From Torpedo marmorata (lineage: Eukaryota): 64,000 bases of DNA. Position 1 is the first letter of the stretch. Each line of letters starts with the position of its first letter. Positions 558-56,735 of the stretch are shown piece after piece. The position numbers and the translations under genes were made by a program. Below the pieces are notes generated by a model. That model did no database searches. It saw only the letters and a program-made list of their open reading frames with translations, and was not told the DNA's origin. The stretch is from positions 195,796,001-195,860,000 of the forward strand of contig OZ360221.1 of the NCBI GenBank assembly GCA_977017645.1. Reading direction: 5' to 3'.

Positions 558-795
558 TTACAGCAAAGCAACAGGCTGTTTGGCCTTCTGCTTCAATACA
601 GACCATCACTACTGTCTATACTAATTCCACTGCCTGCTTCAATTCCATATTTCCTCTCTGCCTTGATCATTCAAGTACCTGTCCCAAATGCCTCTTAAAT
701 TCCTTCCTCCACCACCTCCCCTGGCATCTCATTTCAGACACCAACTACTCTTTGTGTGATACATTTATTCCTCAGTTCCCTTTAAACCTTTCACA
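558..795 (-). mobile_element. CR1 3'-end fragment
   Basis: Degenerate match to the CR1 3' end at 33000-33250. Confidence 0.6.
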
Positions 796-799
796 AGGT

Positions 800-1555
800 C
801 AAAGTTCAAATTCATTGACTGAGTTCATACAGGACATCACATACAAACCTGAGATTCTTTTTACTGTGAGCCAGGCAGATTTCTAATTACTGGTAACTGT
901 AAACTGTACTCAAAAAGAAAGAAATGTAAGCAAAAGAAGGAAAAGTAAACAAACTGTGTAATATAGAAAAAAAATCAGCAATAAATAATGTGCAAAATAA
1001 GAGTCTTTAAATGAGTCTCTGATTGAGTTTGTTGTTTAGGCATCTAATGGTGGAGCGGTAGCAACTGTACCTAAACCTGGTGGTACGAGTCTTGTGGCAC
1101 CTATACCTCTTTCCTGATGGTGGCAGTGAGAACAGAGAATGTAAAGGTAAAGGTAAAGGTTCCATTATTGTCACGTAATACTACATTTAGAATGTAACAT
1201 ACATGAAATTCTTTAATTTTTGTCTACCGTAAGGCAGACAGAGGGTCGCTATTTTGTCCAGCGCCCCTCACAGAAACCTACAACACCTGGTGTTCCTAGG
1301 CGGTCTCCCCTCCAAGTACTGACCAGTCCTGTGCCTGCTTAGCTTCTGAGATCAGACAATCCCAGTCGTATTCAGGCTATTGGTGCTGTTGTGTACAGGG
1401 TGGTGTGGATCCTTGATGATTGCTGCTGCTCTCCGATGGCAGCGTTTCATGTAGATTTTCTCGACGGTGGGGAGAGTTTTGCCTCTGATGTACTGGGTGG
1501 TGTCCTCTACCTATTGCAGGGCTTTCCACTCAGAGGTATAGGTGTCCCCATCCCA
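800..1555 (-). mobile_element. Rex1/Babar LINE 3' fragment, interrupted by a 5S-derived SINE
   Basis: Similar to 43378-44290 (-) and 47372-47915 (+). The sequence aacagagaat...gtacagggtggtgtggatccttgatg is continuous across the insertion. Confidence 0.8.
1141..1393 (-). mobile_element. 5S rRNA-derived SINE (SINE3-type): ~120-nt 5S head, ~110-nt LINE-like 3' module, (CCTTTA)n tail
   Basis: The reverse complement of 1274-1393 reads ...gtctgatctcagaagctaagcaggcacaggactggtcagtacttggaggggagaccgcctaggaacaccaggtgttgtaggttt, colinear with vertebrate 5S rRNA including the internal control region. A non-5S tail follows. Confidence 0.9.
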
Positions 1556-2220
1556 GGCCCCAGACTATCTAATTTGTGCTATAATTTTATAATTCCATGG
1601 GTTACTGATTAGAGTCTGTAAATGTCAGATTCAACTAATCATTGCAAAATTATTTCACTGAATATTCTTGAGAAAAATTTAGTCTTGCAAAATACTATTT
1701 TAAATTTTAAGAGCAGCTTGAAAGGCAGAGGTAAATGCTGAAACAGAAATTGCAATGAATGAAAGATTTAACAATGGCTTGATAGGTAGAAGTAAAACAC
1801 GAAAATCTGTAGACACTGTGATTGAAGTAAAAAACACAAATGCTGGAGAAACTCAGCAGGTCAAACAGTGTATTTTATGTAGCAAAGGTAGAAATACATA
1901 ACCGACGTTTCGGGCTTGAACCCTTCATTAAAGTATGAGAAAATGCCGGCAGGTGTCCGAACAAAAGAGTGAGGGGGGAAGGGGGGTGGCAAAGGCAGGA
2001 GATGATAGGCGGAGAAAGGAGGGAGGGGACAGCAGCAAAGAGGGGGAGGAAAACAGGAAGGACAAGTGAGGGGGGAGGGGAAGGGAGCGACAAGCAGGTT
2101 TAGTGGAAAGCAGAAAAGTCAATGTTAATGCCATCTGGCTGGAGAGTGCCGAGACGGAAAATGAGATGTTGTTCCTCCAATTTGCGGGTAGTCTAGGTGG
2201 GATAGTACATAAGTACATAA

Positions 2221-3494
2221 GTCCCGACCAGTCACCCTCTACCACCACCCTCCTCCGCCTGGCAGAACTTGTCCTCACTCTCAATAACTTCTCCTTCAAC
2301 TCATCCCACTTCCTCCAAATCAAAGGAGTAGCCATGGGTACCCGCATGGGTCCCAGCTACGCCTGCCTGTTTGTGGGCTTTGTGGAGCAATCCATGCTAC
2401 AAGCCTACACAGGCAAGACCCCTCATCTCTTCCTCTGTTATATCGACGACTACATCGGGGCTGCCTCATGCACCCGCGATGAGCTTGTCAATTTCATCCA
2501 CTTCGCATCCAACTTCCACCACGATCTCAAACTCACCTGGTCCATCTCCGATAACACTCTCCCCTTCCTGGATCTCTCTGTCTCCATCTCAGGAGACAAG
2601 CTTTCCACCGACATTTACTACAAACCCTCCAACTCCCGCAACTATCTGGACTACACTTCGTCACACCCTGTCCCCTGAAAGGATTCCATCCCCTTCTCTC
2701 AATTTCTCTGCCTCCGCCACATCTGTTCCCAAGATGAGGTGTTCCGGTCCAGATCTTCTGAAATGTCTGCCTTTTTCCACAAAAGTGGCTTCCCCTCCAC
2801 CACCATCAACTCAGCCCTCACCTGCATCTCCTCCATTTCCCGCTCATCTGCCCTGGCCCCCTCTGCCCCCAGATGCAACAAACATAGAATCCCCCTCATC
2901 CTCACCTACCACCCCACCAGCCTCCGCATTCAACACATTATCCGCCGGAATTTCTGGCACTTACTACAGGATCCCACCACCAGACACATTTTTCCTTCTC
3001 CTCCCCTCTCGGCCTTCCGTAGGGACCGCTCCCTCCGCGATTCACTCGTGCACTCATCCCTCCCCACCTATCGCACCCCCAGCACCTTCCCCTGTGCCCG
3101 CAGAAGGTGCAACAACTGCGCCCACACCTCCCCCCTCACCACGGTCCAGGGCCCCAAACAGGCCTTCCAAGTGAAACTACACTTCACTTGTACATCCAGA
3201 GAACTTATTTACTGCATCCGGTGCTCCCTTTGTGGCTTTCTCTACATCGGAGAGACCGGTCGTAGATTGGGAGACCGCTTTGCTGAGCACCTCCTCTCCG
3301 TCCGCAACAACAGCGACCTCCCAGTAGCCAACCATTTCAATTCCGGGTCACACTCCCACACTCACATGTCTGTCCATGGCCTTATGTACTATCCCATCCA
3401 GACTACCCGCAAATTGGAGGAACAACGTCTCATTTTCCGTCTCGGCACTCTCCAGCCAGATGGCATTAACATTGACTTTTCTGCTTTCCACTAA
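2221..3494 (+). pseudogene. Penelope-like RT + GIY-YIG endonuclease ORF, broken by an in-frame TGA at 2676-2678
   Basis: ORFs 2103..2678 and 2739..3494 are in the same frame, separated by one stop (HPVP*KDSIP). Confidence 0.9.
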
Positions 3495-3654
3495 ACCTGC
3501 TTGTCGCTCCCTTCCCCTCCCCCCTCACCTGTCCTTCCTGTTTTCCTCCCCCTCTTTGCTGCTGTCCCCTCCCTCCTTTCTCCACCTATCATCTCCTGCC
3601 TTTGCCACCCCCCTTCCCCCCTCACTCTTTTGTTCGGACGCCTGCCGGCATTTT

Positions 3655-3697
3655 CTCATACTTTGATGAAGGGCTCAAGCTTGAAACATCGGTTATG
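3655..3697 (+). ncRNA. Minimal type I hammerhead ribozyme motif in the Penelope pseudo-LTR (degenerate)
   Basis: catac-TTTGATGA-A-GGGCT-CA-AGCTT-GAAA-CA-TC-ggttatg, with helix I CAUAC/GUUAUG. Sister copies at 1897-1939 (-) and ~7158-7199 (+). Confidence 0.7.
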
Positions 3698-3859
3698 TAT
3701 TTCTACCTTTGCTACATAAAAGACACTGTTTGACCTGCTGAGTTTCTCCAGCATTTGTGTTTTTTGTTTGATAGGTAGAACTGGTTTCTGAGCTGGACTA
3801 TTGTGGAGTTAAGATTCAATGAGGCATTGAATGTCTAACGATAGGAAGGATGCTAAACT

Positions 3860-6800
3860 AAGACCTTGGAGACTGCAGATGCCGGAATTTAGATAAAAAA
3901 ACAAATAGTTGCTGGGGGAACATAGTGTATCTGTGGAGACAAAGAGATGGTCAACCTTTCAGGTTGAGACTCTGCATCAAGATTGAGAGCATAAAGGAGA
4001 GATAGCCATGGTAAAGGGGGGGGGGAGGGGGATGAGGTAGAAGCTGTCAAATGATAAATGGATCCAGATGAAGAGGTTCTGATGGGCAGATGGAGACAGG
4101 TGGGGAAGGGAAATGTGGAGATAGTGACAGAGGCTGGGTAGTGCTAAGTGGAGACCGCAAATGGCTCCAGATTATGGAGCAAACAAAAAACAAACTGCTG
4201 GATGAACTCATCTTATCAGGAAGTAACTGGAGGGACAAAGAGAGCTGACATTTTGGGTCGAGACCCTGCATCAGGACTGGAGATTATGGAATCTGCTAAG
4301 AAAGAAAGGAGATAAATAGAAGCAGATAAGGGAGGGATGGTGGGCAGGTGGGAACAGCAGAGGGAGGGGATGGGAGAACCAGTGGGTTGAGTGTGTGGGT
4401 GATAGGCAGATGGAACTAGATGGAGGAGAGGAAAGACCAGGTAGCAATAGGCTTGTGGGGAGGGTGGGTGGAAAGAAGTGTGTGGAGTAAGAGGAACTGG
4501 GTGGATCAGAAGGAAAGTGAAAGGAACTGAGAAGGGTGCAGGTTAGCTGAAATTGGAGAATTCAATGTTCTTGCCATTGTAATGTAGACTACCCAGGCGA
4601 AATATAAGGTGTTGTTCCTCGAGTTTGCATCTGCCTCACCCTAGCTGTGGGGGAGGCCGAGGACAGACAGCTCGGTGTGGGAATAGTGAGAAGAGTTAAA
4701 TAGTTTGCAACCAGGAACTCAAAATGACAATTGCAGAAAGGTAATTGGCAAAGCTGTCCTAGTCTGTGGTTAGTCTTGTTGATGTAGAAGAGGCCACATC
4801 AAGAGCACCGAGTGCCATCAGCAAGGTTGGAGGAGATGCAAGTGATCCTCTGCCTCACCTGGAATGACTGTTTAGGTCCCTGGATGGTGGTGAGGGAGGA
4901 TGTGCAGGGATCAAATACTTCACAACCAGGGCTAACCAGAAACCATGGTTGGATGCAGAAGTCCAGGCCCTTCTTAAGCTCATGATGCTTCCTTCAGGAT
5001 AGGGGATAGGATGGCACTAAGATCAGCCACTGCTGAACTCTTCCGTGCAACCCAGAAGGCAAAGCGGGGGTACGCACAGAAGATCCACAGACAGCTGTGT
5101 GACACCGGCGACATGAGGCACATGTGGCAAGGCAACAAGAATATAACGGATCACAAGTCAACCTTGCGAGTTAAGGACAATGACGCCTCCCTTCCGGACA
5201 GATGCAACATCTTCTTTGCATGGTTTGATGAGAAGAACAGGATGACGCCGAAGAAAGCTCCATGTCCCCCGATGAAAGGGCCCCCTGCATAGCCGTGGCC
5301 GAAGTGAGGAGAAACCTATCCAAGATGAGCCCACACAAGGCGGCGGGACCAGACAACATACCTGGTCGGGTACTGAAGGACTGTGCAGACCAATTGATGG
5401 AGATCTACACAGGCATCTTCAACACCTCACTGCAGCAGTCCATCATTCCCACTGGATTCAAGACAGCTACCATCATCCTGGTACCCAAGAGGGCAAAATA
5501 ATATGACTCAATGACAACCGCCTAATCCAGCTCCAACAGTGTCATCAAGTTTGCAGATGACACAACAGTAGTTGGACTCATCAGCAACACTACAGAGAAG
5601 AGGTGGAAAATCTCGTGAAATGGTGCAAGAGTAACAACCTAAGTCTCAACATGGACAAGACAAAGGAGATGATCGTGGACTTCAGGAGGACCAGGAACGA
5701 CAACCCTCCACTACACATCAACAATTCTGTAGTAGAGAGAGTGGAGAGCACCAAGTTCCTTGGAGTTCACTTAACTAGTGACCTATCGTGGACACTCAAC
5801 ATCTCCTCACTTGTCAGGAAGGCGCAACAGCGACATCACTTCCTGAGAAGACTGAAGCGGGCAAGGCTACCGGCCACCATTATATCAACCTTCTATAGGA
5901 GCTCTATCGAGAGCATCCTGGCCGGCTGCATCACAGTATGGTACGGTTGCTGCAGAGAAATGGATTGGAGGTCAATCTACAGGACCATAAGGGTGGTAGA
6001 GAGAATCAGTGGAGTCTCCCTCTCCTTCATCGACGTGATCTACCGCGATCATTGTCTGAAGAGGGCAGGCAAAATCATTGAGGACCCCTTCCACCCTGCA
6101 CACAGCATCTTTCAGCTGCTCCCATCAGGAAAGAGATACAGGAGTATCAGAGGCAACACCACCAGGCTGAGGAACGGCTTCTTCCCACGGGCAGTGAGAA
6201 TGCTGATCGACCAAAGGAACTGCTCACATTAACCATCGAGACTCTCATATGCATGAAACAATATTTATTTATTTATTTGTATGGATGAATACTTGTCCTG
6301 CATATGTATTGTTTGTCTGTATGTGTGTTATGTCTGGTTGTATGTCTGTGTGTTTTGCACTGAGGACCGGAGAACACTGATTTGTCAGGTTGTACTTGTA
6401 CAATCAGATGACAATAAACTTGACTTGATTTGACTTGAAGTTTTGCACCTTTTACAGTTGCAGGGGATAGTACCTGTGGACAGGGAGGAATGGTTGGGAT
6501 GGAATGGGTAAACCATAGAGTTATTGAGAGATTAGCTCCTGGGGAGGGAGAGGAAAATGTGACTGGTATGGGATTATATTGTCTCTGGCGGAAATGATGT
6601 TCTGGATATGGAGGCTTGTTCAGCGAAAGGTAAGAACCAAGGCAATTATGACTCAGTTCTGTCTGGAGGGAGGTTGTGTCAGAGCAGGTGTGCGAAATGG
6701 AGAGCTCCATCCACCACCATAGAAGGGAAGCTGTGTTTCCTGAGAAAGGACATTTCAGATGTGCTGGAGATGTGCTGGAGTGGAAAGCCTCATCTTGAGA

Positions 6801-9598: not shown

Positions 9599-9832
9599 GG
9601 CAGCATAGCATAGTGGTTCGTGCAACCTTATTACAGCGCCAGTAACTCGGGTTTGAATCTGGCGCTGTCTGTAAGGAGTTTGAACATTCTCACTGTGACC
9701 TGTGTGGGCTTTCCCCGGGTGCTCCGGTTTCTTCCCACCCTCCAAAACATACAGGTTTGTAGGTAATTGGTCAGCATGGGTTTCAATGGCCGGAATCAGC
9801 TTCTACTGTGTTGTAAAAAAAACAACTTTTAA
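9599..9832 (+). mobile_element. tRNA-derived SINE (HE1/V-SINE-like)
   Basis: A box tagtgg, B box ggtttgaatc, core gggctttccccgggtgctccggtttcttcccac, CR1-like tail. Confidence 0.85.
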
Positions 9833-12249: not shown

Positions 12250-13190
12250 TTTAAAAAAATTTAAAAAATATTTTATTTAAAATTTTAAATCACAAAGTAC
12301 ATAAAATAAAATATAAAATTATCAAAATACATGTGATACATTTTTACCCCCCCCTCCCTCCCTCCCCTCCCTAACCTCCCACCCCCCTGACTCACACCGG
12401 CTCACCGACGAGGTGCAGTCGTGTCGCACAGTACACTGTACGGCCCAGCCGACAACCACGCCGAAAGCACGGGGAGCCCATACTAATCTACTAAAATAAA
12501 AAAGAGAAAGAAAGAAAAAGATAGAGTAAGGAGAATGTCAATCTAAAAAGAACATCTATAAACTGATTTTATTATGGAGGATAGGTTCGCCAGTCAGATC
12601 CGATGTCCAGAGATCTTCAAATCCTTAATCCAACAGCCTTCATATATGGGCTTCATATTTTCAAAAAGAAATGATATTTATTATGTAAATTATAAGTAAT
12701 TTTTTCAAGTGGTATACATGAACGAAGTTCTGCATGCCATCTTTCTAACCCTAAATCTACATCAGATTTCCATGTAATAGCGATGCATTTCTTAGAAACA
12801 GCTAAAGCAATTCGCAAAAATTCTATTTGATACATATTTAATTTCATCTTAATAAAGTATTGAGTATTACACTTCCATTGGACCCTATGATATTTTTGTT
12901 TGGAGATATTAAAAGAATTAGTTCTTTTAATATCTCCAAACAAAAATATCATAGTGTCCAATGGAAGTGTAATACTCAATACTTTATCTAAAAGGTTTTT
13001 AACTTTCAACCAAAAATCATATATCTTTGGACAAAACCATGTAGAATGTACAAAAGAACCTTCCTCTCTATTACATCTAAAACATAAACCTGATAATGTC
13101 GAATTAAATTTCTTTAATTTTTTAGGCGTTAAATATAATTGATGAAAAAAATTATATTGAACTAATCTATATCTAACGTTAATAATCTTT
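12250..13190 (-). mobile_element. L1-clade LINE 3' fragment with an internal fold-back duplication and a 93-bp insert
   Basis: ORF2 C-terminus (KKCIAITWK...WHAELRSCIPLEKITY) nearly identical to 19073-19588 and 62625-63140. Confidence 0.92.
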
Positions 13191-13758: not shown

Positions 13759-14015
13759 GGCGACATGGTTTGCGTAGTGGTTAGCGCAACACTGTTAAAG
13801 CACCAGCGACCCAAGTTCAAATCCGGTGGTGTCTGTAAGGAGTTTGTACGTTCTCCCCATGTCTGCATGGGTTTCCTCCGGGCGCTCTGGTTTCCTCCCA
13901 CCGTTCAAATCGTACCGGGGGTTGTAGGTCAATTGGTTGTATTTGGGCAGCACGGGCTCGTTGGCCGGAAGGGCCTGTTACCATGCTGTATGTCTAAGCT
14001 TAAAATTTAAATTTA
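13759..14015 (+). mobile_element. tRNA-derived SINE (HE1/V-SINE-like)
   Basis: Same family as 9599-9832 and 43618-43862; (ttaaat)n tail. Confidence 0.9.
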
Positions 14016-14404
14016 AAACAAAATAGCTGTTCAGTATTTGTGAAGCAGTGAAAAAATTCTTCATTACTTCATTTCCCCATTCCTTTTTGAATGTTTTATG
14101 AGTCTATATATTTATAGTTAATTAAAAATATTAATGGGGCATGCATTTATCATGAACAAACTTTGATTCACACTGTTGCAGTTCTTAATCACACTTCTAA
14201 ATGTTAATGCAGGTTGGTTCGGTAGTAAAGAAGGCAAATGCAATGTCAGCATTCATTTCGAGAGGACTACAATATAAAAGCAAGATGTAATGCTTAGGCT
14301 TTGTAAGGCTTTGGTCAGACCACCTTTGGAGTATAGAGAGCAGTTTTGGGTCCAAAGAAAGAATGTGGTGGGTTTGGAGAGGGTTCAGAGGAGGTTTACA
14401 AGAA

Positions 14405-16839
14405 AGGGCTGGATGGGTTGGAGTTTGTGAAATGTGTGCAGGATAGTTTTTTACAACAATATGTAGAGGTACCGACCAGAGAAGGAGCAGTGTTAGATCT
14501 ACTGTTGGCAAATGAGATAGGTCAAGTGACGGAGGTTTGTGTTGGCGAGCACTTCGGGTCCAGTGATCATAATGCCATCAGCTTCAATGTCATTATGGAA
14601 AGAGATAAGTCAGGGCCAAGGGTTGAGGTTTTTGATTGGGGAAAAGCTAGATTTGAGGAGATGCGAAGGGACTTACAGGGTGTGCATTGGGACAATTTGT
14701 TTTATGGGCAGGATGTAGTAGAGAGATGGAAGTCTTTTAAAGATCAGATTTTGAGAGTGCAAAAGCTTTATGTTCCTGTTAGGTTAAAAGGAGGGGCAAA
14801 AGGTTTGAAAGAGCCGTGGTTTTCGAGGAATATTGGAAACTTGGTTCGAAAAAAAAGGGAGGCGTACATTAAGTATAAAAAGCATGGAAAGGAGATGTTT
14901 GAAAAATACATTGACTGTAAAAAGAATCTTAAGAGAGGAATTAGGAAAGCTAAAAGAAGGTATGAAGAGACTATAGCAATCAGGGTGAGAATTAATCCAA
15001 AAGGTTTTTACAAATACGTTAATGGTAAAAGGAAAGCGAGGGACAAAATTTGTCCCTTAGAGAATCAGAGCGGAAAACTGTGTGTGGAGCCTAGAGAAAT
15101 GGGGGAGATATTGAACAGTTTCTTTTCTTCGGTATTCACCAAGGAGAAGGTTATTGAGATATGCGAGATAAAAAAAGCAAATTGGGTAAATATGGAGAAT
15201 ATAGGGATTACAAAAGATGTAGTGTTAGGGCTTTTGAGGCATATAAAGGTAGATAAGTCTCCGGGACCCGACAGGATCTTCCCCAGGACCTTGAGAGAAG
15301 TAAGCAAAGGAATAGCAGAGGCTCTGACGGTGATTTTCCAAATGTCATTAGAGATGGGGATAGTGCCGGAGGATTGGCGTATTGCTCATGTGGTTCCGTT
15401 ATTTAAAAAGGGTTCAAGGAGGAAGCCTGGCAATTATCGGCCTGTAAGTTTGACGTCTGTGGTAGGTAAATTAATGGAGAAAGTTTTCAGAGATAGTACT
15501 TATAAATATCTGGATAGACAGGGTCTGATCAGGAACTCTCAACATGTATTTGTGAGCGGAAGGTCCTGTTTGACCAATCTGATTGAATTTTTTGAAGAGG
15601 TGACTAGGAATGTGGATGAGGGTAGCGCGGTGGATGTTGTCTATATGGACTTCAGTAAGGCCTTCGATAAGGTTCCGCATGGAAGGTTAGTTAGGAAGGT
15701 GCAGTCTTTAGGTATAAATTCTGAGATAGTCAAATGGATTGAACATTGGCTGGAAGGGAGAGGCCAGAGAGTGGTAGTGGATAATTGTCTGTCAGGTTGG
15801 AGGCCGGTGACCAGCGGTGTGCCTCAGGGATCTGTATTGGGCCCATTGTTGTTCGTTATATATATCAATGATCTAGATGATGGGGTGGTAAACTGGATTA
15901 GTAAATATGCAGATGATACTAAGATAGGTGGAATAGTGGATAATGAAGAAGGTTTTCAAGGATTGCAGAGGGATTTGGGCTGCTTAGAAAAGTGGGCTGA
16001 AAAATGGCAGATGGAGTTTAATGCTGATAAGTGTGAGGTGCTTCATTTTGGTAGGAAGAATCAGAACAGGACATATGTAGTAAATGGGAGAGCATTGATG
16101 AATAGAGAAGAGCAGAAAGATTTAGGAATAACGGTGCATCGTTCCCTGAAGGTGGAAGCTCATGTGAATAGGGTGGTGAAGAAGGCTTTTAGTATGCTGG
16201 CCTTTATCAATCATTGCATAGAATATAGGAGTTGGGAAGTGATGTTGAGATTATATAAGGCTTTGGTGCGGCCTAATTTAGAGTTCTGTGTGCAGTTCTG
16301 GTCGCCAAATTATAGGAAGGATATCAACAAGGTGGAGAGAGTGCAGAGAAGGTTTACCAGAATGTTACCTGGGTTTAAGAATCCAGAGTACAAGGAGAGA
16401 TTGAGCATATTAGGTCTTTATTCTTTGGAGCGTAGAAGGTTGAGAGGGGATTTGATAGAGGTATTTAAAATTATGAAAGGGACAGTCAGAGTGGATGTGG
16501 ATAGACTATTTCCATTAAGAATAGGAGAGATTGAAACAAGAGGGCATGAGCTAAGTGTTAAGGGGCAGAGGTTTAGAGGTAACATGAGGGGGAAATTCTT
16601 TACTCAGAGAGTGGTAGCGGTGTGGAATGAGCTTCCGGGAGAAGTAGTGGCGGCAGAGTCAATTTTATTATTTAAGAAAAAGTTGGACAAGTATATGGAT
16701 GAGAAGGAAGTGGAGGGTTATGGGCAGGGTGCAGGTAGGTGGGACTAGATAGGAATGTTTGGTTCGGTGCGGACTGGAAGGGCCTAATGGCCTGTTTCCG
16801 TGCTGTAATAGTTATATGGTTATATGTTATATGGTTATA
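14405..16839 (+). mobile_element. Young CR1 LINE, 5'-truncated, with ~780 open codons of ORF2 (APE C-terminus + RT)
   Basis: ORF 14346..16748 has SDHNAI, KSPGPD, YRPVSLTS, DFSKAFD, SGVPQGSVLGP, YADD. Tail (tatggtta)n. Confidence 0.96.
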
Positions 16840-17253
16840 TGATTTCGGGGATGAGAGAGTTAACGCATAAGGAGCGTTTGATGGCTTTGGGTTTGTACTC
16901 ACTGGAGTTTAGAAGTATGAGGAGGGATAACCACGTATAAGACCGAATTTGAACCTTAAAAACGTCACCCCAAAACCAGGGGCAGTCTTATATGCCAAGA
17001 ATAAAATCTGAACCTTAATATCTTCTGGTTTAGGGTATCCCCCATGGCGATGTAGCATCATCATGATGATGTTTATATCATCAAACACTCGCATAACTCC
17101 TACGGTCCTACCAATAAATATTTTTCCACTGAAACTTACGTTTGGGAAGCTGAATTAATAGTAATGTTATATTAAAACAATAAAAATATATTATAAACCT
17201 GTCTAACATACCTTAAAATAACAGCACAGCAAATGAAGCTATACTCGACACCA

Positions 17254-20753: not shown

Positions 20754-20978
20754 TGTGGTGGAACGCGGTACTGCGGGCATGTCCGGGCATGTCCTCACTG
20801 GCTCACTGGGCTAACCTGTAGCCCCTCCCCATTACATCCCCTAATAAAGGCTGAGAGCCCTAGTCTCCCCCCCTTATACCTGCCTTGGACGTGAGCCAGC
20901 AGCATGCTCGAACTTTCTGATCAATAAAGCCTTTGATCACTTTCTTCGTGTCTGCGAGTGGTCATTGATCGCGCTACA
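20754..20978 (+). repeat. Gypsy 5' LTR
   Basis: tgtggtggaac...gatcgcgctaca, with AATAAA at 20923-20928. Confidence 0.95.
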
Positions 20979-21411
20979 ATTTATTGATCAGAATTTTAAA
21001 GTGCCATGGAGAAGGCAATTAGACTGGAGAAGCTGGAGATCGATCCAAAGGAACCAGAGGCCTCCGTAAAGTTCTATATGTGGCTACACTGTTTGAAGGC
21101 CTACCTGAGGCGCCACAATATCACAACCAACCCGGATAAGTACGATCTGCTCTTCGCAGCGGTGGGCCACAGAGCGTACTAAATTATCCGAGACTGCACC
21201 GAATATGAAGAGGCAATGGCTCTACTTCGACAACAATACGGAGCCCCAGTGAACGCCATGTACGCACGCTTCCAGCTGGGCTCACGACGCCAGGGTCCCG
21301 GTGAGTCGGTCGACGAGTTCGTGAGGGCCATGCGGGAGCTGGGACGAGCCTGCGGGTGCCGGGACGTGAGTGCGGCGCTCTACCAGGAGGAGCTCATCCG
21401 CGATGGGCTAG

Positions 21412-24400
21412 TCAGAATCAGAATCAGAATTTATTGTCATGAACAAGTCATGAAATTCGGTGTTTTGCGGCAGCATCATAGTGCAATTAACATTCATATT
21501 AACCATCTTACGACATTACTATAAAAAATTATAAACAATAGTGCATGAAAAGTAAGGCAGTGTCTTTGGTTCATTGATTATTCAGGAATCTGATGGCAGC
21601 GGGGAAGAAGCAGTCCTTGTGCCGTTGAGTGCTCGTCTTTAGGCTCCTGTACCTTTTTCCCGATGGAAGCAGAGTGAAGAGGGCATGGCCTGGATGGTGG
21701 GGGTCTTTGAGGATAGAGGCTGCTTTTTTAAGACACCGCCTCATGTAGATGTCCTCAATGGAGTGAAGCTTTGTGCCTGTGATGTCACAGGCCAAGTTAA
21801 CAACCCTCTGGAGTTTACTCTTGTCCTGGGAGTTGGCGTCTCCATACCAGGCAGTGATGCAACCAGCCAGAATGCTCTCCACGGTACACCTGTAGAAGTT
21901 TACGAGAGTCTTTGGTGACATACCAAATCTCCGCAGACACCTCACAAAGTATAGCCGCTGACGAGCCTTCTTTGTGATTGCATCAACGTGGATGCTCCAG
22001 GACAGATCCTTGGAGATGTTGACACCCAGGAATTTGAAGTTCTTGACCCTCTCCACTACTGAGCCCTCGATGAGGACTGGGTCGTGTTCCCCTGACTTCC
22101 TCCTGAAGTCCACAATCATCTCCTTGGTTTTGCTGACGTTGAGCTCAAGGTTGTTGCCATTACACCATTCAACGAGCTGATCTATCTCCCTCCTGCACGC
22201 TTCCTCATTGCCGATTGTGATTCTGCCGACAACTGTGGTGTCATCGGCAAACTTATAGATGGCATTGGAATTGTGCCTGGCCACACAGTCATGGGTGTAT
22301 AACGAGTAGAGCAGTGGACTAAGCACGCATCCTTGGGGTGCGCCTGTGTTGATAATCAGTGAGGAGGAGACGTTGTTTCCAATTTATACTGACTGTGGTC
22401 TTCCGATGAGAAAGTCAAGGATCCAGTTGCAGAGTGGGGTACAGAGGCCTAGAGTTTGTAGCTTCTTGACCAGCACTGAGGGAATAATGGTATTGAAGGC
22501 CGAGCTGTAGTCGATGAAGAGCAGCCGTATGTATGAATTGCTGTTTTCGAGGTGATCCAGAGCTGAGTGGAGAGCCAGCGATATTGCATCTGCTCTGGAG
22601 CGATTGTGACGATAGGCGAATTGCAGTGGGTCCAGATCTTTGCTTAGGTATGTGTTAATTCTGGCCATGACCAGCCTCTCAAAGTATTTCATCACAGTAG
22701 AAGTTAGTGCTACTGGGCAGTAGTCGTTGAGGCGTCCCACACTACTCTTCTTGGGTACCGGGATGTTTGATGCCCTTTTGAAGCAGGTGGGAACCTCTGA
22801 CTGCCGTAATGAGAGGTTGAAAATATCCGTGAACACTCCGGCTAGCTGGTTGGCGCAGATTTTCAGTACCCTGCCAGTTACGCCGTCAGGGCCTGACGCC
22901 TTGCGAGGGTTCACCCTCTTGTTTTTTTTTGTTTTTTTTTTGTTTTTTTAAATTATTTTATTTAAACTTTTAAATCACAAAATACATAAGATAAAATATA
23001 AAATTATCAAAATACATGTGATATATTTTCACACCCCCACCCCCCCACCCTCCCTCCCCTCCCCAACCCCCCCATCCCCACTAATCTAATAAAAAATAAA
23101 AATAAAAATTAATGTATAATAGAAAAAAGAAAGAAAAGAATAGAAAGAAAAGAATAGAATGAGGGGAATACCTTCTAAACTAATTCTATTATGGAGGTCA
23201 AGTGTGCCAGCAGATCTGATATCTAGAGATCTTCAAATCCTTAAACCCACAGCTCTCATATATGGACTCCAAATTTTCAAGAAAAAATGATATTTATTAC
23301 GTAAATTATAAGTAATTTTTTCCAGTGGTATACACGAACGGAGTTCTGCATGCCATCTTTCTAATCCTAAATCTAAGTCAGATTTCCAAGTAATAGCAAT
23401 GCATTTTTTTGAAACAGCTAAAGCAATTCGCAAAAATTCTACTTGAAACATATTTAATTTCTTTTTAATACTAAATTTTTTAATATCTCCAAATAAAAAT
23501 AACATAGGATCCATTGGAAATGCAATATTAAATACTTTATCTAAAAAATTTTTAACTTTCAACCAAAAATCTTGAATCTTTAGACAAAACCATGTAGAAT
23601 GAACAAAAGAACCTTCCTCTCTATTGCATCTAAAACATAAGCCTGATAATGTCGGATTAAATTTCTTAAATTTTTTAGGTGTTAAATATAATTGATAAAA
23701 AAAATTATATCGTACTAGTCTATATCTAACATTGATAATCTTCGTCATACTTAACTTACATAAATCTTTCCAATGATTTTCATCTATATTTACATTTAAA
23801 TCTAATTCCCATTTTAATCTTGATTTATGCAATCCTATTTTAGGCATTTTCTTCTGAAACAATTTATACATTTGAGAAATAAATTTAATAATATCTCCAT
23901 TAGTAACTAATAATTCTAATTCATTTTGTCTTGGTAAAATCAAAGCATAACCTAATTTCTCAGTCAAAAAAGCTTTAACTTGATAATAAGCTAAAAATGT
24001 ATTATCTGGTATATTAAATTTATCTTTCATTCTTTGAAACATAATAAATTTTCCAGCTTCAAAAAAATCATTAATCTTCTTAATACCTTTTTGAAACCAA
24101 ATTTTAAGTAACTGATTATTAACAGTAAATGATATAAGTCCATTTTGATATAATGGCATATTTGAAGAAATTAATCCTCTTCCACCTATCTCTTTATCCG
24201 TCTTACCCCATAGTTTTATTTGAATCAAAAAATTCATTAACAAATTTTAATTGAGCTTCTTTATAATAATTTTGAAAATTAGGAAGTTGCAATCCACCCA
24301 TCTCATAATTCCAGGTTAACATTTCCATACTTACTCTTGCTAACTTTCCTTTCCATAAAAATTTCCTAATAATTAAATTTAAATCTTTAAAAATTTTTTG

Positions 24401-27003
24401 AGGAATTCCAAAAGGAATTGATTGGAAAAGATACTGAACTCTTGGAAAAATATTCATTTTAATACAATTTACCCTTCCCATTAAAGTTATGGGTAAATCT
24501 TTCCAATTCTCTAAATCTTTCTTTATTTTCACAAATAATGGTAGATAATTTAATTTATATAAATTTTCCAATTTTGTATCAACCTTAACCCCCAAATATT
24601 TAATTCCTTCTTTAGCCCATTTAAATTGTGTAATTTCTTTACATCTAGTATAATCACCTTGAGATAAAGCCATTATTTCACTTTTATCAGAATTAATTTT
24701 ATATCCAGATATCTCACCATATTCTCTTAATATAATAGATAGTTGTTGAAGTGATATAATAGATTTTGTCATATATATCAATACATCATCTGCAAACAAA
24801 CTAATCTTATGTTCTTCCATACCAACTTTAATACCCACTATTTTAGGATCTTTTCTAACTAATTCAGCCAAGGGTTCTATCGCCAAAACAAATAAAGCTG
24901 GTGACAGGGGACATCCCTGTCTCGTAGAACGTGTCAAAGAAAATTTTGGCGATATTTGTCCATTTGTAATTACTTTAGCTGATGGTTCTTTATATATAGT
25001 TTTAATCCAATTTATAAATGTATTTCCAAAACCAAATTTTTCTAATACCTTAAGTAAAAAAATCCATTCTAATCTATCAAAAGCCTTTTCAGCGTCTAAT
25101 GTTACAACTAATGGTAAATCTTGTTTCTTTTTATGCAAACTAATTAAACTAATTAATCTAGCTATATTATCCTTTGAATATCTATTTTTAATAAAACCAG
25201 CTTGGTCTATATGTATCAAATCTGGCAAATATTTAGCCATTCTGTTTGCTAAAATTTTTGCCATTATTTTATAATCTACATTTAATAATGAAATAGGTCT
25301 ATATGATTCAGTTTTTAATACATCTCTATCCTTCTTTGGTATAACTGTAATTATAGCATTTAAGAATGTTTTCGGTAATGAATGAGTTTCCGTAATTTGA
25401 TCTAGTACTTCCATATATGGAGGTATCAATAAATCTTTAAATTCTTTATAAAATTCTGATGAAAACCCGTCATCACCCGGAGATTTACCACTCTTCAGCG
25501 AAGAAAAAACTTCACTAACTTCCCTCATTGTGAAAGGCAAATCTAAAGAGTCTCTACTCCGAATATTCAATTTAGGTAATATGATTTTAGATAGGAATCT
25601 ATTAATTTTAGAATCATCTTGGTCAATCTGCGATTTATATAAATTCTGATAATAATCTTTAAAAGATTCATTTATCTCTTGAGGTTTATGTTATTTCTCC
25701 AGTATTTTTCTTCCTTATAGCATTTATAGTTTTAGAAACTTGTTCTTTTTTCAATTGCCATGCCAAAACCTTATGTGCTCTTTCTCCTAATTCATAATAT
25801 CTTTGTTTAGTTTTCTCAATTAATTTTTCCATTCTATATGTTTGTAACAAATTATAATGTAATTTCTTCCCTATTAAACGATTTCTTTTTTGAATTGATC
25901 TATTTCTCTGTAAGTCCTTCTCCATAAGTTCAATTTCCTTCTCAAGTTTTTCTCATTCCTTAAGATAATCTTTCTTAATTTTAACTGAATAGCTTATTAT
26001 TAGACCCCTTAAATAAGCTTTTAAAGCTTCCCACACTATAAATTTATCATTAATAGAATTAACATTTATTCGTAAAAATTCCTGAATTTCTCTTCTTATA
26101 TATTCACAAAAATCTTTCCTTTTTAATAACGACGAATCAAATCTCCAATTATATATAGTTTTTTCTTTTAGGGTTCACCCTCTTGAATGATGTTCTGACG
26201 TCGCCCTCAGAGACAGATATCACAGGGTCCTCAGCCTTTTCAGGGATTCTAGTATGCACTGTTTTGTTCTTCTTCTCAAAGCGGGCATAGAAGGTGTTCA
26301 GCTCATCGGGTAGTGAAGCATCACAGCCGTCTATAGTGTTCGCCCTCGCTTTGTAGGCTGTAATGGCCTGCACTCCCTGCCATAGCTGGCGTGTATCTGT
26401 CTCTGTCTCTAGCTTCCTCCGGAATTGCCATTTTGCTTCAGAGATGGCCTTCCGCAGGTCGTGCCTGGACTTCTTGTAAAGATCCCTGTCCCTGGCCTTA
26501 AACGCCCTTGTTCTCGTCCTCAGCAGGTTGCAAATTCTCTGATTCATCCAGAGCTTCTGGTTGGGGAACACCCGGTATTTGCGCGTGGGCACACACTCAT
26601 CCATGCAGGTCTTGATGAAGTCGGTGACACCTGTTGCATCTTCATTTAGGTCTATGGCTGAGTGCTTGAATATGTTCCAGTCCACCAATTCAAAGCAGTC
26701 CTGCAGACGATCCTCCGCCCCCCTCGACCATACTTTCGCCGTCCTCACCACTGGTGCTGTGGTCTTCAGTCTCTGCTTGTACGCCGGGAGTAGAAGTACA
26801 GCCAGGTGATCAGACTTGCCGAAGTGCGGTCGTAGTATGGCTCGGTATGCGTTCTTCACGGTGGTGTAGCAGTGGTTGAGTGTGTTCCCCTGGTCTCGCA
26901 TGTGACGTGTTGGTGGTAGTTTGTCAGTGACTTCTTCAGATTGACCTGATTGAAGTCTCCCACAATGATCGGGAAGACATCAGGATGTGCTGTCTCATGG
27001 CTG
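21412..27003 (-). mobile_element. Rex1/Babar LINE inserted in Gypsy gag, split by an L1
   Basis: APE (GDFN, SDH) in 26149-27003 and RT in 21571-22914 ([12 protein letters not shown]). (TTCTGA)n tail at 21412-21429. gag reads ELIRD|...|FVAG across the insertion. Confidence 0.95.
22922..26169 (-). mobile_element. L1-clade LINE inserted in Rex1, with 16-bp TSD
   Basis: ORF2 fragments 25686-25925, 24203-25570 and 23233-24243. Poly(A) tail. TSD agggttcaccctcttg at 22906-22921 and 26170-26185. Confidence 0.96.
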
Positions 27004-30000: not shown

Positions 30001-30478
30001 CCCACTGGTCGAGGAAGTGCATCTCTTGCATGCCAGTATGCGCTGGTAAGGTACCCGGACGGACGAGACATATACAGTGTCCATCTGGCGCGAGCGGGGG
30101 CCCCGGCACGAGAGGTGCACCCGATATCCCCAGTCAGTGACCAGTCGGCCCCAGGGATCACCCTGACAAATGAAATAGGGATCCCACCCCCAAGACGGCC
30201 CCCCGAGTGTCCCCCTTCACTTGTGTGTTCCCCCCCCCACTCTTACCAACAAATTCACCGCCCCCTACGGACCCGGGACACACAGAAACAGTTCAGCCCT
30301 CCGACAGCCAGCAGGTCGAACACGACACCACTCAGCTAGATCCGAAGATACAGCCAGTACTTCGGAGATCCCAGCGCCAAAGAAAACCGCCAGAGCGGCT
30401 GAACCTATGAGACTATAAACTGTATGGACATTGTCTCGCTTCACCCCGCCGGACTTCATTAAAAAAAGGAGGGGTGAA

Positions 30479-30702
30479 TGTGGTGGAACACGGTACTGCG
30501 GGTATGTCCGGGCATGTCACTGGGCTAACCTGTAGCCCCTCCCCATTACATCCCCTAATAAAGGCTGAGAGCCCGAGTCTCCTCCCCTTATACCTGCTTT
30601 GGACGTGAGCCAGCACCATGTTAGAGGCATGCTCGAACATTCTGATCAATAAAGCCTTTGATCACTTTCTTCGTGTCTGCGAGTGGTCATTGATCACGCT
30701 AC
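30479..30702 (+). repeat. Gypsy 3' LTR
   Basis: Direct repeat of 20754-20978 with two short indels and some substitutions, preceded by the PPT. Confidence 0.95.
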
Positions 30703-30939: not shown

Positions 30940-31790
30940 TAATTCAAGATCAAAATTCAATTTATTGTCATGTAATAAAAATAGTGCCATATTACACAAA
31001 ATAGCCTTTTGTCTGCTGTAAGGCAGACAGATTCGCCATTGGCAGAAATTGACTGAAGTGCCTCTTGCCCAGAGAAAGAGAAGGAAAAGTGAGTTCCCCC
31101 CAGTGTCCATGCATTTGCCTCCAGCACTCCCGCAGCCTCCGCAGCCACACAGAGTCCAGTCCAAACCATCGGCAACCTGGGTTTCAGATCCGAACCTCCG
31201 ATATGATTACAAACCCTTCAGCGCCCTCGGCACCCTCTGGCATCCTGGTTCCGATACCTGGTTCCCCTTCAGCCAGTTTCGAGCCAGTCTCCAGCAGTCC
31301 GCAGCCTGGTGCGAGTCCCTTGACCGCAGTCTCCAGCAGCCCACAACCTGCGTGCGTTCCTTGTCTCGAGTCAACAACAGCCCGTCGCCTGTGTGGGTCC
31401 TTCAGCTGCAGAACCCCCTCACTGGTGCGCTGCCGCGGTCACCGTCCCGTGGGTCGTCTCCTCTGCTTCTCCTTCTCAAATGGGTGTTGGTCTCCCAGTT
31501 TTCTGGTGTCCTGCGCCAGTCCTCCGCTTCCATGGAGTCTGCAACTCCTCGTGGCTACTGCTGATCATAGGTGCCGCCATCTTGGGCGCAGACCCCGCAG
31601 TCATGGGATTTTAAATAAAACTACTGTCGGCTCCTTTAACAGGCTGTTCAAAGCCTGTACGGAGCTGACGGCAGTCGGACTGGGTGGTTGGACCCCGCGG
31701 GAGCGCAGTGTCTCCACTCCCTGCTCTCCGTGGGCCCGCACTAGCGGCAGCGCTGCCATTACAGTAGCTCCGGCAGCGCCGCCATTTTCC
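30940..31790 (-). mobile_element. GC-rich ~850-bp non-autonomous retroposon, copy 1
   Basis: Colinear with 45064-45895, 50350-51177 and 55895-56735. The minus strand starts AAAATGGCGGC and ends gacaataaa(ttgaat)n. Confidence 0.85.
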
Positions 31791-43862: not shown

Positions 43863-44292
43863 ATATTAAATGAGTCTCTGATTGAGTATGTTGTTTGGGA
43901 GCCTGATGGTGGTGGGGGGGGGGGTAGGAACTCATTCCATAACCTGGTGGGGGTACGAGTCCTGTGGCACATATACCTCTTTCCTTTTGGCAGCATTGAG
44001 AACAGAGCATGTCCAGGATAGTGTAGTTCCTTGATGATTGCTGCTGCTCTCTGACAGCAGCGTTCCACATAGATTTTCTCGATGGTGGGGAGAGTTTTGC
44101 CTGTGATGTACTAGTTTGTGTCCAAAACCTTTTGCAGGGGTTTCCGCTCCGAGGTAATGGTCCCCCCCCCCCCCATACCAGAGTGATGCAGCCGGTCAGC
44201 ACAATTTCCACTATAAACCTGTGGAAGTTTGCCAAGGTTTCAGATGTAATACTGAACCTCCGCAAACTCCTGAGGAAGTAGAGGTGCCTACA

Positions 44293-45895
44293 TGATTTCA
44301 AATTCATGATTCCTTTATTGTCATGTAATACAGGTACATAATCTTTTATCCGAAACCCTTGGGACCAGACACTTTTCAGAATTCAGAATTTTTCGGATAA
44401 TAGAATAATAGTAACGGCGGTACGTTAAGTAATTGCGCTGATTTCAGATTCGCGCAAAACAAAGACACACTCCAACTAGAAGGGTCTTTGGATGGGGGGG
44501 CGCTGGACGGTGAGGGGGGGGGTGGCAACGGCGCTGGACGTGGGTGGGGGGTGGTAAATGAAGTGAGATAAAGATAGACCATAAAATTACTAGCATACTT
44601 TTTATTTTTAAGTAAAACATACAGTAAAACTTCAAACATTAACATCACTGTCACTGTAAAACTTCAACAACTTTTTCTGCTTTTTAAGTCATATATGGTG
44701 GTCGTTCCCATACCATAATCTTCAGTAAGACGCTGCACAGATACACCACAATCAAGCTTCTGCAATAACTCTACTTTCTGCGCTATCGATAATGACAGAC
44801 GCTTCCTTTTCTGCTTCTCTCTGTTACCCATAGAGGACTCTGCAGCTCTTTTTGACATTTTCACAGTCTTCAAAGTCTGTGAACAGCAGAGGCATGTCTG
44901 ACTGGTAGGAGCACTGAGACACGGCGCTGGACGGGGGTGGGTTGTGTCGGGTCATGTTTGGCGCCAAACGTGAGCTTTGGTGTGCAGACGACATCTTTGG
45001 AAAAAATGTTCGGTTTTCGGAGGTTTCGGTTTTCAGAATTTTGGATAAAACATTATGTACCTGTAGTCCCGAACGTAATATTTCACGAAATGGCCATCTG
45101 CCTGCCAAAAGCCAGACAAAGAGTCGCCATTAGTGTTGCCTGGTGCCCCTTACAGTACAAGAGAAAGAGGAGCAAAAGAGAGTCCATTCAGTCACCAAGT
45201 GTCCATGGATTCTCCTCCAGCGCTCCCGCAGCCTCGGCAGCTGCACAAACTCCCGTTCGATTCATCGGCAACCCGAGCTCCAGATCCAAACCTCTGACAC
45301 AATCAGGAAGCCTTCAGCACCCAAGGCCTTTTGGGAGCCCTTCTTTCCCTCAGCACCCTCTCGAATCACGGATCCAATATCTGGTTCCCATGAACCAGTC
45401 TCCAGCAGCCCGAAGCCCATGTGAGTCCCCCGACCACAAGTCACACGCAGCCTGTGTCACTCCTTTAATTGCTGAGTCCCTCGCTGTTCTGCTACCATGA
45501 TCACCATCCGGTAGGGTCCTTCAGTCGCTGAGACCTCGCTGATCTGCCGCCATAGTCACTGTCCTGGAGGGTCGTCTCCTTTGCTTTTCCTTCTCAACGA
45601 GGGGTGTTCTCCGTTTCTAGTGCCCTGCGCCTGTCCGCTGCTCCATGGAGTCTACAATTCCTCGTGGCTGCTGCCCAGCACAGGCGCTGCCATCTTGGGC
45701 ACAGACACGTGGTTGCAGGATTTTAGTTAAAAACAACGTCAGCTCCTTTAACAGGCCGTTTACCGTCTGTACGGATCCGCTGGCATTAGGACAATGCGTT
45801 TTGAACCCTATGGAGCATCGCTGTGTCTCCTCTCTCCCGGGTCCACACCAGAGACAACACGGTTATTACAGCAGCTACGATAGTGCCGCCATTTT
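44293..45895 (-). mobile_element. GC-rich retroposon, copy 2, split by a Tigger element
   Basis: Tail at 44293-44330, body at 45064-45895. Confidence 0.85.
44331..45063 (-). mobile_element. Tigger/pogo-family internally deleted DNA transposon
   Basis: TIRs caggtacataatcttttatccgaaa / tttggataaaacattatgtacctg with TA on both sides. CENP-B/Jerky-like HTH KRKRLSLSIAQKVELLQKLDCGVSVQRLTEDYGMGTTTIYDLK at 44664-44873. Confidence 0.92.
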
Positions 45896-47371: not shown

Positions 47372-47915
47372 TAGGAGTGTGCTGACCGGCTGCATCACGG
47401 TCTGGTATGGGGACACCAATACCCCTGAGCGTAAAGCCCTCCAAAAGGTAGTGGACACAGCCCAGAACATCACAGGCAAAACCTTCACCACTATCAAGAA
47501 CATCTACAGGGAACGCTGCCATTGGAGAGCAGCAGCAATCATCAAGGATCCACACCACCCAGAGCACGCTCAGTTCTCGCTGCTGCCATAAAGAGGTATA
47601 GGTGCCACAAGACTCGCACCACCAGGTTCAGGAACAGCTGCTACCCCTCTACCATCAGACTCCTCAACAACAAACTCAATCAGGGATTCATTTAAGGACT
47701 CTTACTTTTGCACTTTATTGATTTTTTTAATTCTCTCTGTATTGCACAGTTTGTTTACATTCGTTATCTGTTTACAGTTCTTTATTTGTTTACATGTATA
47801 CACTGCGTACAGTTTTTTTTGCACTACCAGTAAGTGGTAATTCTGCCTCGCCCACAGAAAAAAGAATCTCAGGGTTGTATGTGATGTATGTACTCTGACA
47901 ATAAATCTGAAATCT
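47372..47915 (+). mobile_element. Rex1 3' fragment
   Basis: LTGCITVWYG...IIKDPHHP; tail gacaataaatctgaaatctga. Confidence 0.9.
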
Positions 47916-47929
47916 GAGGAGTGGGAAGG

Positions 47930-50349: not shown

Positions 50350-51177
50350 AGATTCAAGATTCAAGATTCAATTTATTGTCATAGTAATAAAACACTGAAA
50401 TATTATATGACAATATTACAAGGCAGACAGATTCGCCATCGGCAGAAATTGCCTAAGCGCCTCTAACATTCCTTACAGTCAGAGAAAGAGAAGCAAATGA
50501 GAGTCCCCCGAGAGTCACCGAGTGTCCGTAGATTCGCCTCCAGCGCTTCTGCAGCCTCTGCAGCCACACTGAGTCCAGTCCAAACGATCGGCAACCCGAA
50601 CTCCAGATCCGAACCTCCGACACGGTCAGGAACCCTTCGGCGCCCTCGGCACCCCCTCGCATCCCGGTTCCGATACCTGGTACTTCTCCAGCCAGTTTGA
50701 GCCGGTCTCCAGTAGTCCGCAGTCCGGCGCGAGTCTCCTGACGGCAGTCTCCAGCAGCCCACAGCCTCCGCGGGTTACTCGCCAGCAGCCCGCCGCATGC
50801 ACTCGTCCTTCAGCCTCAGAGCCCCTCACTGGTACGCCGCCGTGGTCACCGTCCCGTGGTTCGTCTCCTCTGCTTCTCCTTCTCAGGCGGGATGGGGAGG
50901 GGGTGATCTTTCCGTCCTCTGGTGCCCTGCTCCAGTCCTCCGCTTCCCCGGAGTCTGCAGCCCCTCGTGGCTGCTGCCGATTAATAGGCGCTGCCATCTT
51001 GGGCGCAGACCTGCGGCCGCGGGATCTCAAATAAAACCACCGTCGGCTCCCTCAACTGGCCGTTCAAAGCCCGTGCGTTGCCGACGGCAGTCAACTGGAC
51101 CCCGCGGGAGCGCTGCATCTCCGCTCCCTTGCTCCCCGCGGGTCCGCAGCAGCGGCAGCGCTTTAACCACCTTCCTG
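50350..51177 (-). mobile_element. GC-rich retroposon, copy 3 (most CpG-intact)
   Basis: Colinear with the other copies; (aagattc)n tail on the plus strand. Confidence 0.88.
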
Positions 51178-55790: not shown

Positions 55791-55894
55791 TCTAAGAGAT
55801 TGGGGATATAGGGGATCAGGGTTTTCAAACAGTGAAGCGGGCTGCATTAACCATGTTGGTAGAAAAGGCTGGAGATCTGTGGATTCAGGAAATT

Positions 55895-56735
55895 AAGATT
55901 CAAGATTTATTTATTGTCATGTAATAAAAATAGTGCAATATTACAAGCAATTTGCTTTAGTCTGCCGTAAGGCAGACAGATTCGCTATCAGCAGAAATTG
56001 CCTGAAGCGCCTTACAGTCAGAGAAAGAGAAGCAAAAGGGAGTCCCCTCAGAGTCACCGAGTGTCCGTGGATTAGCCTCTTGCAGTCCCCGCAGCCACAC
56101 AGAGTCCAATCCAAACATCAGCAGCCCGAGCTCCAGATCTGAATCTCTGACATGATCAGGAAACCTTCAGCACCCTTGGCACCCTCTTGCATCCCGATTC
56201 CAATGCCTGGTACCACTTCAGCCAGTCTCCAGCCAGTCTCCAGCAGTCCGCAGCCCGGTGTGAATCCTTTTACCGCAGTCGCCAGCAGCCCGCAGCCTGC
56301 GCGGGTTCCTCGCCTCGAGCCTGCTGCCTGTGTGTTCTTCAGCCGCAGAACCCCTCACTGGTCCCCCGTGGTCACCCTCCTGGGTCTTGTCTCCTTTGCT
56401 TCTCCTTCTCAAATGGGGGGGGGGGGCGTGGTGTTCTCCCCGTTTTCTGTTGCCCTGAGCCAGTCCTCCGTTTTCCCAGAGTCTGCAACCACTCGTGGCT
56501 GCTGCTGATCATAGACGCCACTATCTTGGGCGCAGACAGCACAGTTACAGAATCTTAAAATAAAACCACCGTTGTCTCCATTAACAGGCTGCTTAAAGCC
56601 TATGCAGAGCTGATAGCAGTTGGACTGAGTGGTTGGACCCCGCAGGAGCACTTTGTCTCTGCTCCATGCTCTCCGCGGATCCGCACCATCGACAGTGCTG
56701 TCCTTACCGCAGATCTGGCAGCGCCGCCATTTTTT
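55895..56735 (-). mobile_element. GC-rich retroposon, copy 4
   Basis: Colinear with the other copies; 5' end AAAATGGCGGCG. Confidence 0.88.

Follow-up and report, generated by a model that had tools for sequence, protein, structure and literature searches.

A 5S rRNA-derived insert with a Rex1-like 3' ending in a Rex1-type LINE: a putative SINE3-type element

Introduction

Near the start of the window (the whole stretch of 64,000 nucleotides analysed here) a 5S rRNA-like sequence is joined to the 3' end of a retroposon, which raises the question of whether this unit is a copy of a SINE family or a single chance fusion, and which type of LINE moved it. A sequence-only reading of the locus had proposed a 5S-headed SINE mobilised by a Rex1-type LINE. 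On the evidence presented below the insert is likely a dead copy of a Pol III-transcribed SINE3-type SINE mobilised by a Rex1-clade LINE; it would then have been transcribed by Pol III and amplified, with a partner of the Rex1 clade.

Structure of the Insert and Its Insertion Site

The insert is 248 bp long (1391-1144, minus strand) and consists of a remodelled 5S head fused to a 113-nt tail. The features of the locus are listed with the evidence for each in brackets:

1274..1391, minus strand: 5S rRNA-derived head, 5S positions 3-120 (Rfam, by-eye 5S comparison, fold)
1161..1273, minus strand: 3' module, hairpin-rich (nhmmer, shuffle z, fold z)
1141..1160, minus strand: terminal microsatellite (CCTTTA)x3.3, overlapping the duplication in its final bases (repeat scan)
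1392..1395, minus strand: TACA, likely 4-bp target-site duplication, copy on the 5' side (empty-site comparison)
1140..1143, minus strand: TACA, likely target-site duplication, copy on the 3' side (empty-site comparison)
1392..1559, minus strand: host Rex1-type LINE fragment, end of the ORF, upstream of the insertion (83-86% DNA identity to paralogs)
794..1143, minus strand: host Rex1-type LINE, remaining ORF, 3' UTR and own 3' end (alignments)

On the minus strand the 5S head is followed by the 113-nt module ending in GACAATAA (1172-1165), by TGGAA and by the microsatellite, a perfect repeat (100%) of period 6 with 3.3 copies at 1141-1160; motif and tandem repeat had been described correctly from the letters alone. 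The flanks (1559-1392 and 1143-794) form one LINE fragment, with which the paralogs at 47399-47917 and 44167-43866 can be aligned, and the upstream part (1392..1559) matches the RT protein of the LINE at 21.6 kb by tblastn (E 8e-12). When TACA was counted once, the empty site was gap-free against both paralogs tested (identity 85% and 83%, vs 81% between the two paralogs). The earlier statement that this copy landed inside a Rex1-type LINE thus held. The same counting delimits the insert as 1391-1144 and leaves its head without 5S positions 1-2, the bases matching these positions belonging to the host LINE; the proposed fusion of a full-length 5S head to about 110 nt was borne out as a fusion (Rfam E 1.1e-6) and corrected as to the length of the head. 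The likely 4-bp duplication is short, which is a point against the SINE reading. Rex1-type DNA makes up about 11% of the window (approximate borders), so that the nested position requires no special cause, and a target preference for Rex1 was ruled out as its explanation.

The insert is short (<1 kb) and interspersed rather than tandem, with no 5S unit nearby in the window according to Rfam. BLASTN with a word size of 7 found no second head or junction in the 64-kb window, and a permissive Rfam scan (E<=5) no second 5S match. Head and junction are thus represented by 1 copy in 64 kb, vs 4 copies of the non-coding family of about 850 bp described below and 5 of a V-SINE-like element. The latter lie at 9599-9770, 13768-14005, 42969-43144, 43621-43847 and 62359-62570, one of them in a Rex1 3' UTR, and presumably resemble the shark and ray V-SINE HE1. 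ARAGORN detected no tRNA in the window. Prokaryotic genomes, scanned for stray host DNA, gave 0 matches to the tail-end pattern, and a protein search with the junction reading frame returned 7 weak unnamed hits.

Several other elements were recorded in the window. A Penelope-like element (1829-3765) has an RT-like frame and a weak GIY-YIG match, and its flanking 385-bp inverted repeats are 97% identical. A Gypsy-like LTR element (20754-30702, repeat pair 88% identical) is broken up by a Rex1-type LINE, into which in turn an L1/Tx1-like LINE is inserted. Long CR1-like elements lie at 14337-16841 (+) and 32951-36945 (-), one with an open frame of 803 aa, and GC-rich minisatellites at 48995-49330 and 51299-51895 (periods 34-bp and 28/7-bp). 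Hairpins at 52654-52750 and 12882-12957 have sub-threshold miRNA-family scores and are probably transposon-derived inverted repeats.

The 5S rRNA-derived Head

The Rfam model RF00001 (5S_rRNA) matched 1393-1275 on the minus strand over model positions 1-120 with 47.1 bits (cut-off 38; E 1.1e-6), the sole Rfam match at gathering level in the window. The head was also compared by eye with 5S sequences of other species, namely two elasmobranch primers and positions 44-120 of a stingray class II 5S (supplement 1), for which PMC3123226 served as the source of reference sequences. Mismatches are distributed unevenly: 16/39 (41%) at positions 3-21 and 24-43 vs 10/77 at positions 44-120 (Fisher p 0.0017), and still 11/39 vs 8/77 after exclusion of CpG sites (p 0.019).

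SINEBase defines SINEs by at least 60% identity to 5S, tRNA or 7SL over at least 60 nt, by a body or tail in addition to what an RNA pseudogene would have, and by a genomic copy number of 100 or more (PMC3531059). Positions 44-120 of the head are identical to stingray 5S at 67/77 sites by eye (87% over 77 positions), and the additional part is the 113-nt module, which is homologous to a retroposon 3' end.

The region of the head that would contain the promoter is:

1297..1344, minus strand: predicted Pol III type-1 promoter region (by-eye match to stingray class II 5S)

We take box A to lie at about 1344-1330, the intermediate element at about 1327-1322 and box C at about 1314-1297. Within these limits the mismatches to stingray class II 5S are 1/15, 1/6 and 2/18, respectively, and the predicted boxes together are identical at 35/39 positions by eye, an indication that the internal Pol III promoter may be nearly intact. 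The head ends in TTT at its 3' end, not in a longer T run. With an internal promoter and no run of four or more T, Pol III would be expected to read through the tail. The lack of a T4 run from the insert was dropped as a mark of Pol III adaptation, as shuffled sequences were equally free of T4 in 39% (whole insert) to 82% (tail) of cases and the difference was not significant.

A functional 5S rRNA gene was ruled out: the sequence is solitary, without positions 1-2, has only TTT at its end and shows seven broken pairs in the Rfam alignment, in which the 5' partner always falls in positions 1-34 (two are host bases). The head nevertheless folds like 5S with three helices (z -2.9). Six of the 11 non-CpG changes in the 5' part create Watson-Crick pairs (positions 10-12 with 109-107 and 33-35 with 44-42; one of the six changes substitutes for a G-U wobble), the pair probabilities are 0.73-1.00, and loops A and C are closed as a result. 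This pattern was spotted post hoc, and palindrome-perfecting mutation could yield the same. The G17-C61 pair of helix II was ruled out as a SINE-specific compensatory change, being present in the elasmobranch 5S references as well; this shared pair makes a shark or ray a likely host. Loops A and C of 5S rRNA serve the binding of TFIIIA and L5; on this ground it is proposed, as a hypothesis, that zipping the loops would allow escape from the 5S particle.

The excess of changes in the 5' part has to be seen against the age of the host LINE. Judged from pairwise values, the host LINE may be about 8-10% from its subfamily ancestor. Since the insert is younger than the host copy, which is 83-85% identical to its paralogs, decay after insertion should amount to about 10% or less; set against 41% in the 5' part of the head, this suggests that the excess predates the insertion. 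That the head has changed more than the host copy's age would explain speaks for an evolved SINE master and against a one-off chimera, and an excess confined to the 5' part is what would be expected of a master that requires only its internal promoter. The reading of the insert as a member of a SINE lineage fits this divergence (16/39 vs 10/77 mismatches).

The Tail and Its Non-coding Relative

Along its full length the tail is homologous to the 3' end of a GC-rich non-coding retroposon family of about 850 bp, which is present in the window as four copies 71-81% alike, each identified by alignment and profile:

30941..31788, minus strand: non-coding retroposon of about 850 bp, copy 1
50352..51171, minus strand: copy 2, 5' end slightly short
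55891..56733, minus strand: copy 3, nearest to the tail (68% over 100 columns)
44290..45895, minus strand: copy 4 (45064-45895 plus the end at 44290-44329)

A profile of the four copies matched 1273-1150 at E 6.8e-9 (nhmmer), and as the match begins at 1273 the homology of the tail starts right at the 5S end. Shuffle z values for the tail against the four copies were 10.2, 4.0, 13.2 and 11.3. This family, overlooked in the sequence-only reading, is the actual relative of a tail that had been sought among the Rex1 LINEs. The identity of the tail to the four copies is 56-68%, its microsatellite differs, and it has indels of 8, 2 and 8 nt relative to two copies that show no indels between them. 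By these alignments the tail is a lineage separate from the four copies.

All four copies end in GACAATAAA plus a microsatellite, and three of the four have the same start motif, in which we presume a resemblance to a YY1 site. The copies contained no Rex1 coding remnant (tblastn) and no Pol III head (Rfam, ARAGORN), and have 2-5 T4 runs each. None of 2385 candidates was a protein homolog of the family (0/2385), and its hairpin pattern had 0 matches in prokaryotic genomes. We regard it as a candidate non-autonomous Rex1 derivative. A MITE (44331-45063) interrupts copy 4 close to the 3' end, and the copy in turn lies within a Rex1-type ORF. The MITE has inverted ends as well as a TA duplication, completes a triple nesting and is, we assume, Tigger-like.

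The tail folds with a z of -4.46 (0/200 shuffles were equally stable), the predicted hairpins at 1269-1241, 1240-1221 and 1206-1171 being followed by GACAATAA. Of two tails folded from the 850-bp family one was stable (z -4.55) and the other not (z -1.07), and covariation in an alignment of five tails was unsupported (term +1.08; 1/18 pairs). Given the mixed fold scores and the lack of covariation support, a conserved terminal stem in the tail is at most suggested by the folding model.

The Rex1-type LINEs of the Window

Three further LINE copies bear on the identity of the partner:

21412..22947, minus strand: coding Rex1-type LINE (RT + PF09004), ending in GACAATAAA + microsatellite, used as reference in assigning the clade (Pfam, homologs, primer-peptide spacing)
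5561..6438, plus strand: second coding Rex1-type LINE, sharing with the tail only the terminal motif (z 0.1) (Pfam)
47376..47917, plus strand: Rex1-type paralog of the host, weakly similar to the tail (z 3.1) (alignment)

Among the nine ORFs scanned with Pfam, those at 5561 and 21574 combine RT with PF09004 (E 1e-17 and 9e-13), and the CR1-like and L1-like ORFs are without PF09004. The 120 best homologs of the window LINE are mostly RT + PF09004 proteins, none of them named Rex1; those named come largely from bony fish, plus a frog, a ray and a shark. We take PF09004 to be linked to Rex1; the literature search found no paper that makes this link. The peptides encoded by Rex1 primer sites were also found in the window LINE (6/7 residues for the forward primer, the RL..R pattern for the reverse primer) at a spacing of 570 nt, and the CR1-like and L1-like ORFs have different residues at the forward-primer motif. 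Published Rex1 primers (PMC3728117) give amplicons of 573-575 bp. At the DNA level no primer site with up to 7 mismatches was listed for the expected Rex1-type RT regions, and for the reverse primer no site was listed anywhere. The window LINEs are here taken as Rex1-clade.

The sequence-only reading had held that the Rex1 LINEs end in the same way as the insert, and this proved accurate for the last motif only. GACAATAA occurs 12 times on both strands of the window vs 2.5 expected (maximum 5 in 20 shuffles), and together with a microsatellite it is present at 6410 and 47897 as claimed. The signature A[AT]T[TC]TC[AG]..TGACAATAA + microsatellite occurs four times in the window, in the insert, two coding Rex1 ends and one orphan end. 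The orphan, a Rex1-type 3' end with the full signature at 30805-30860 (+), stands tail-to-tail with the 850-bp copy at 31 kb. Similarity across the module of about 110 nt did not exceed z 0-3.2. With the terminal motif removed, comparison of the tail with four coding Rex1 ends gave z 0.1, 0.6, 0.0 and 3.1, and with three controls -0.6, 0.3 and 3.3, the 3.3 belonging to the orphan end; with the motif kept the tail scored 3.2 against the host end and 1.0 against the end at 43 kb. A profile of six coding Rex1 ends picked up all six sequences from which it was built, but at E<=10 it missed the tail. The 3' module may come from an autonomous Rex1; direct homology with the coding Rex1 ends of the window was rejected except for the terminal motif. 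An autonomous partner LINE of the insert is absent from the window.

Eight CR1-, L1- and V-SINE-like ends gave no match to the tail either (best z 2.5), including the three CR1-like ends of the window (z -0.5, 0.6 and 2.5), which agrees with the earlier description of the ending as Rex1-type and not CR1-type. GACAATAAA + microsatellite occurs in the window as an ending of RT + PF09004 LINEs, whereas the CR1-like and L1-like ends that were inspected lack it. Three coding Rex1 ends folded no better than shuffles (z 1.3, 0.0 and 0.7), a stem ahead of the motif also formed at 1/2 control sites, and a covariance model of the Rex1 ends contained no base pairs.

Origin of the Insert and Alternative Explanations

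A simpler account of the fusion would be a one-off chimeric retrocopy, in which a Rex1-type enzyme working on RNA of the 850-bp family or of a LINE switched once to 5S rRNA or a divergent variant of it, and the product never amplified as a unit. Only a single copy lies in the window, headless relatives of the tail are present there, and chimeras of small RNAs and LINEs are a described class (PMC4494074). We nevertheless consider this unlikely, since the 5' third of the head is 41% diverged, non-uniformly and beyond what the age of the host allows, and the tail is just 56-68% identical to its four relatives and has indels of its own; head and tail would both require donors that had already diverged. 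Far less credible is a pair of adjacent insertions, a 5S pseudogene beside the 3' end of an 850-bp copy that had lost its 5' part. Nested insertions are frequent in the window, as in the triple nest at 44-46 kb, but the two parts share a strand and stand head-to-tail with no spacer or poly-A between them, the tail homology begins exactly at the 5S end (profile from 1273), and a single duplication flanks the entire unit.

The insert might also be a genuine 5S-headed SINE with a partner other than Rex1, the SINE and the 850-bp family both using another LINE with a similar end motif. Apart from the terminal motif the tail cannot be aligned to coding Rex1 ends, and no Rex1 coding remnant was detected in the 850-bp family by tblastn, both of which speak for such a partner; that the shared ending sits on RT + PF09004 LINEs in the window and not on the inspected CR1-like or L1-like ends speaks against it, and we hold this account to be improbable.

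A SINE mobilised by a Rex1-clade LINE, the reading preferred here, could have arisen as follows. While copying an RNA that came from the 850-bp lineage or from that lineage's autonomous parent, a reverse transcriptase would have switched to 5S rRNA at a point some 115 nt in from the 3' end, giving a fusion with its own internal promoter, from which Pol III would read through the tail. In the master copy, changes would then have built up in the 5' third of the head, where no promoter lies. The terminal stem-loop, GACAATAA and the microsatellite would be the features recognised by a Rex1-clade protein, and copies would insert via target-primed reverse transcription. A more far-reaching version is possible, though we would regard it as doubtful: a high-copy elasmobranch SINE3 derived from a 5S-capped non-autonomous Rex1 derivative, which would be the first 5S-Rex1 pair and would mean that Rex1 spawns non-coding derivatives, with a head selected to zip loops A and C so that the DNA promoter is kept while the transcript avoids the TFIIIA/L5 route.

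If true, the Rex1 partner would be a new head-partner combination for 5S SINEs and would imply an independent SINE3 origin in a group in which the SINEs described so far have tRNA heads, and the 850-bp family would add Rex1 to the LINE clades with non-coding derivatives. Insert and family together would illustrate in compact form how a non-autonomous LINE may give rise to a SINE, a route already proposed, and their common terminal stem-loop and motif would be a testable candidate for the RNA recognition signal of Rex1. Dispersed copies could confound 5S rDNA mapping. The gain falls within transposon biology and involves no new mechanism.

Comparison with Known Elements

SINE3 elements have CR1-clade partners in vertebrates and I or RTE partners in insects (PMC7245038), and 5S-derived SINEs made up 2.3% of the first SINEBase release (PMC10946416). 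The 5S-element table of the latter, in the part available, lists no element from cartilaginous fish. RTE, Ingi, Vingi and R2 are the clades with non-coding derivatives given in the available text of PMC5786205, where Rex1 is unmentioned. The accessible portions of PMC5499810, PMC2746220, PMC4824008, PMC11481361, PMC5753468 and PMC4698564 contain no 5S-Rex1 element, and a search of the open literature, to the extent of its accessible text, found no description of a 5S-derived SINE paired with Rex1.

Zebrafish SINE3 and AmnSINE1 resemble the insert in having a 5S head with an internal Pol III promoter and a LINE-type 3' end, but as DeuSINEs they are paired with CR1-4_DR-type LINEs (PMC3747384, Table 1). 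In the insert the head is joined directly to a 113-nt tail with a Rex1-like ending, and since no unexplained segment lies between them there would be no room for a Deu central domain. On the features testable here, the CR1-like ends compared being those of the window, the insert would not be a member of the zebrafish SINE3/DeuSINE group. The LINE RSg-1 is probably L2-like. OS-SINE1 of salmonids shares with the insert a 5S head, a fish host and a LINE-derived tail, but is a DeuSINE paired with RSg-1 (PMC3747384).

Closer in construction are Ped-1 of the springhare and HaSE3 of a moth, in which the 5S head is joined to the 3' portion of either a LINE or a non-autonomous derivative of one, a birth route proposed in PMC5786205; their partners, however, belong to the RTE clade, Ped-1 pairing with BovB (PMC3747384). 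Among the 58 pairs tabulated in PMC3747384 a single SINE has a Rex1 partner, namely SINE2-5_NV with Rex1-24_NV of a sea anemone; this SINE has a tRNA head and a cnidarian host. HE1, SacSINE1 and SINE2-1_CM come from chondrichthyans, likely the same host group as that of the insert, but are all tRNA-headed with CR1 or L2 tails. Template-switch chimeras of the U6-L1 type likewise carry a small RNA 5' of a retroposon 3' end; they are independent one-off copies, whereas the head of the insert has a lineage-like divergence. We guess that the element might, with rather low probability, already have been deposited in a repeat database. The insert probably works like the known tail-sharing SINEs and, unless it is already in Repbase or Dfam, would add a new pairing of head and partner to them.
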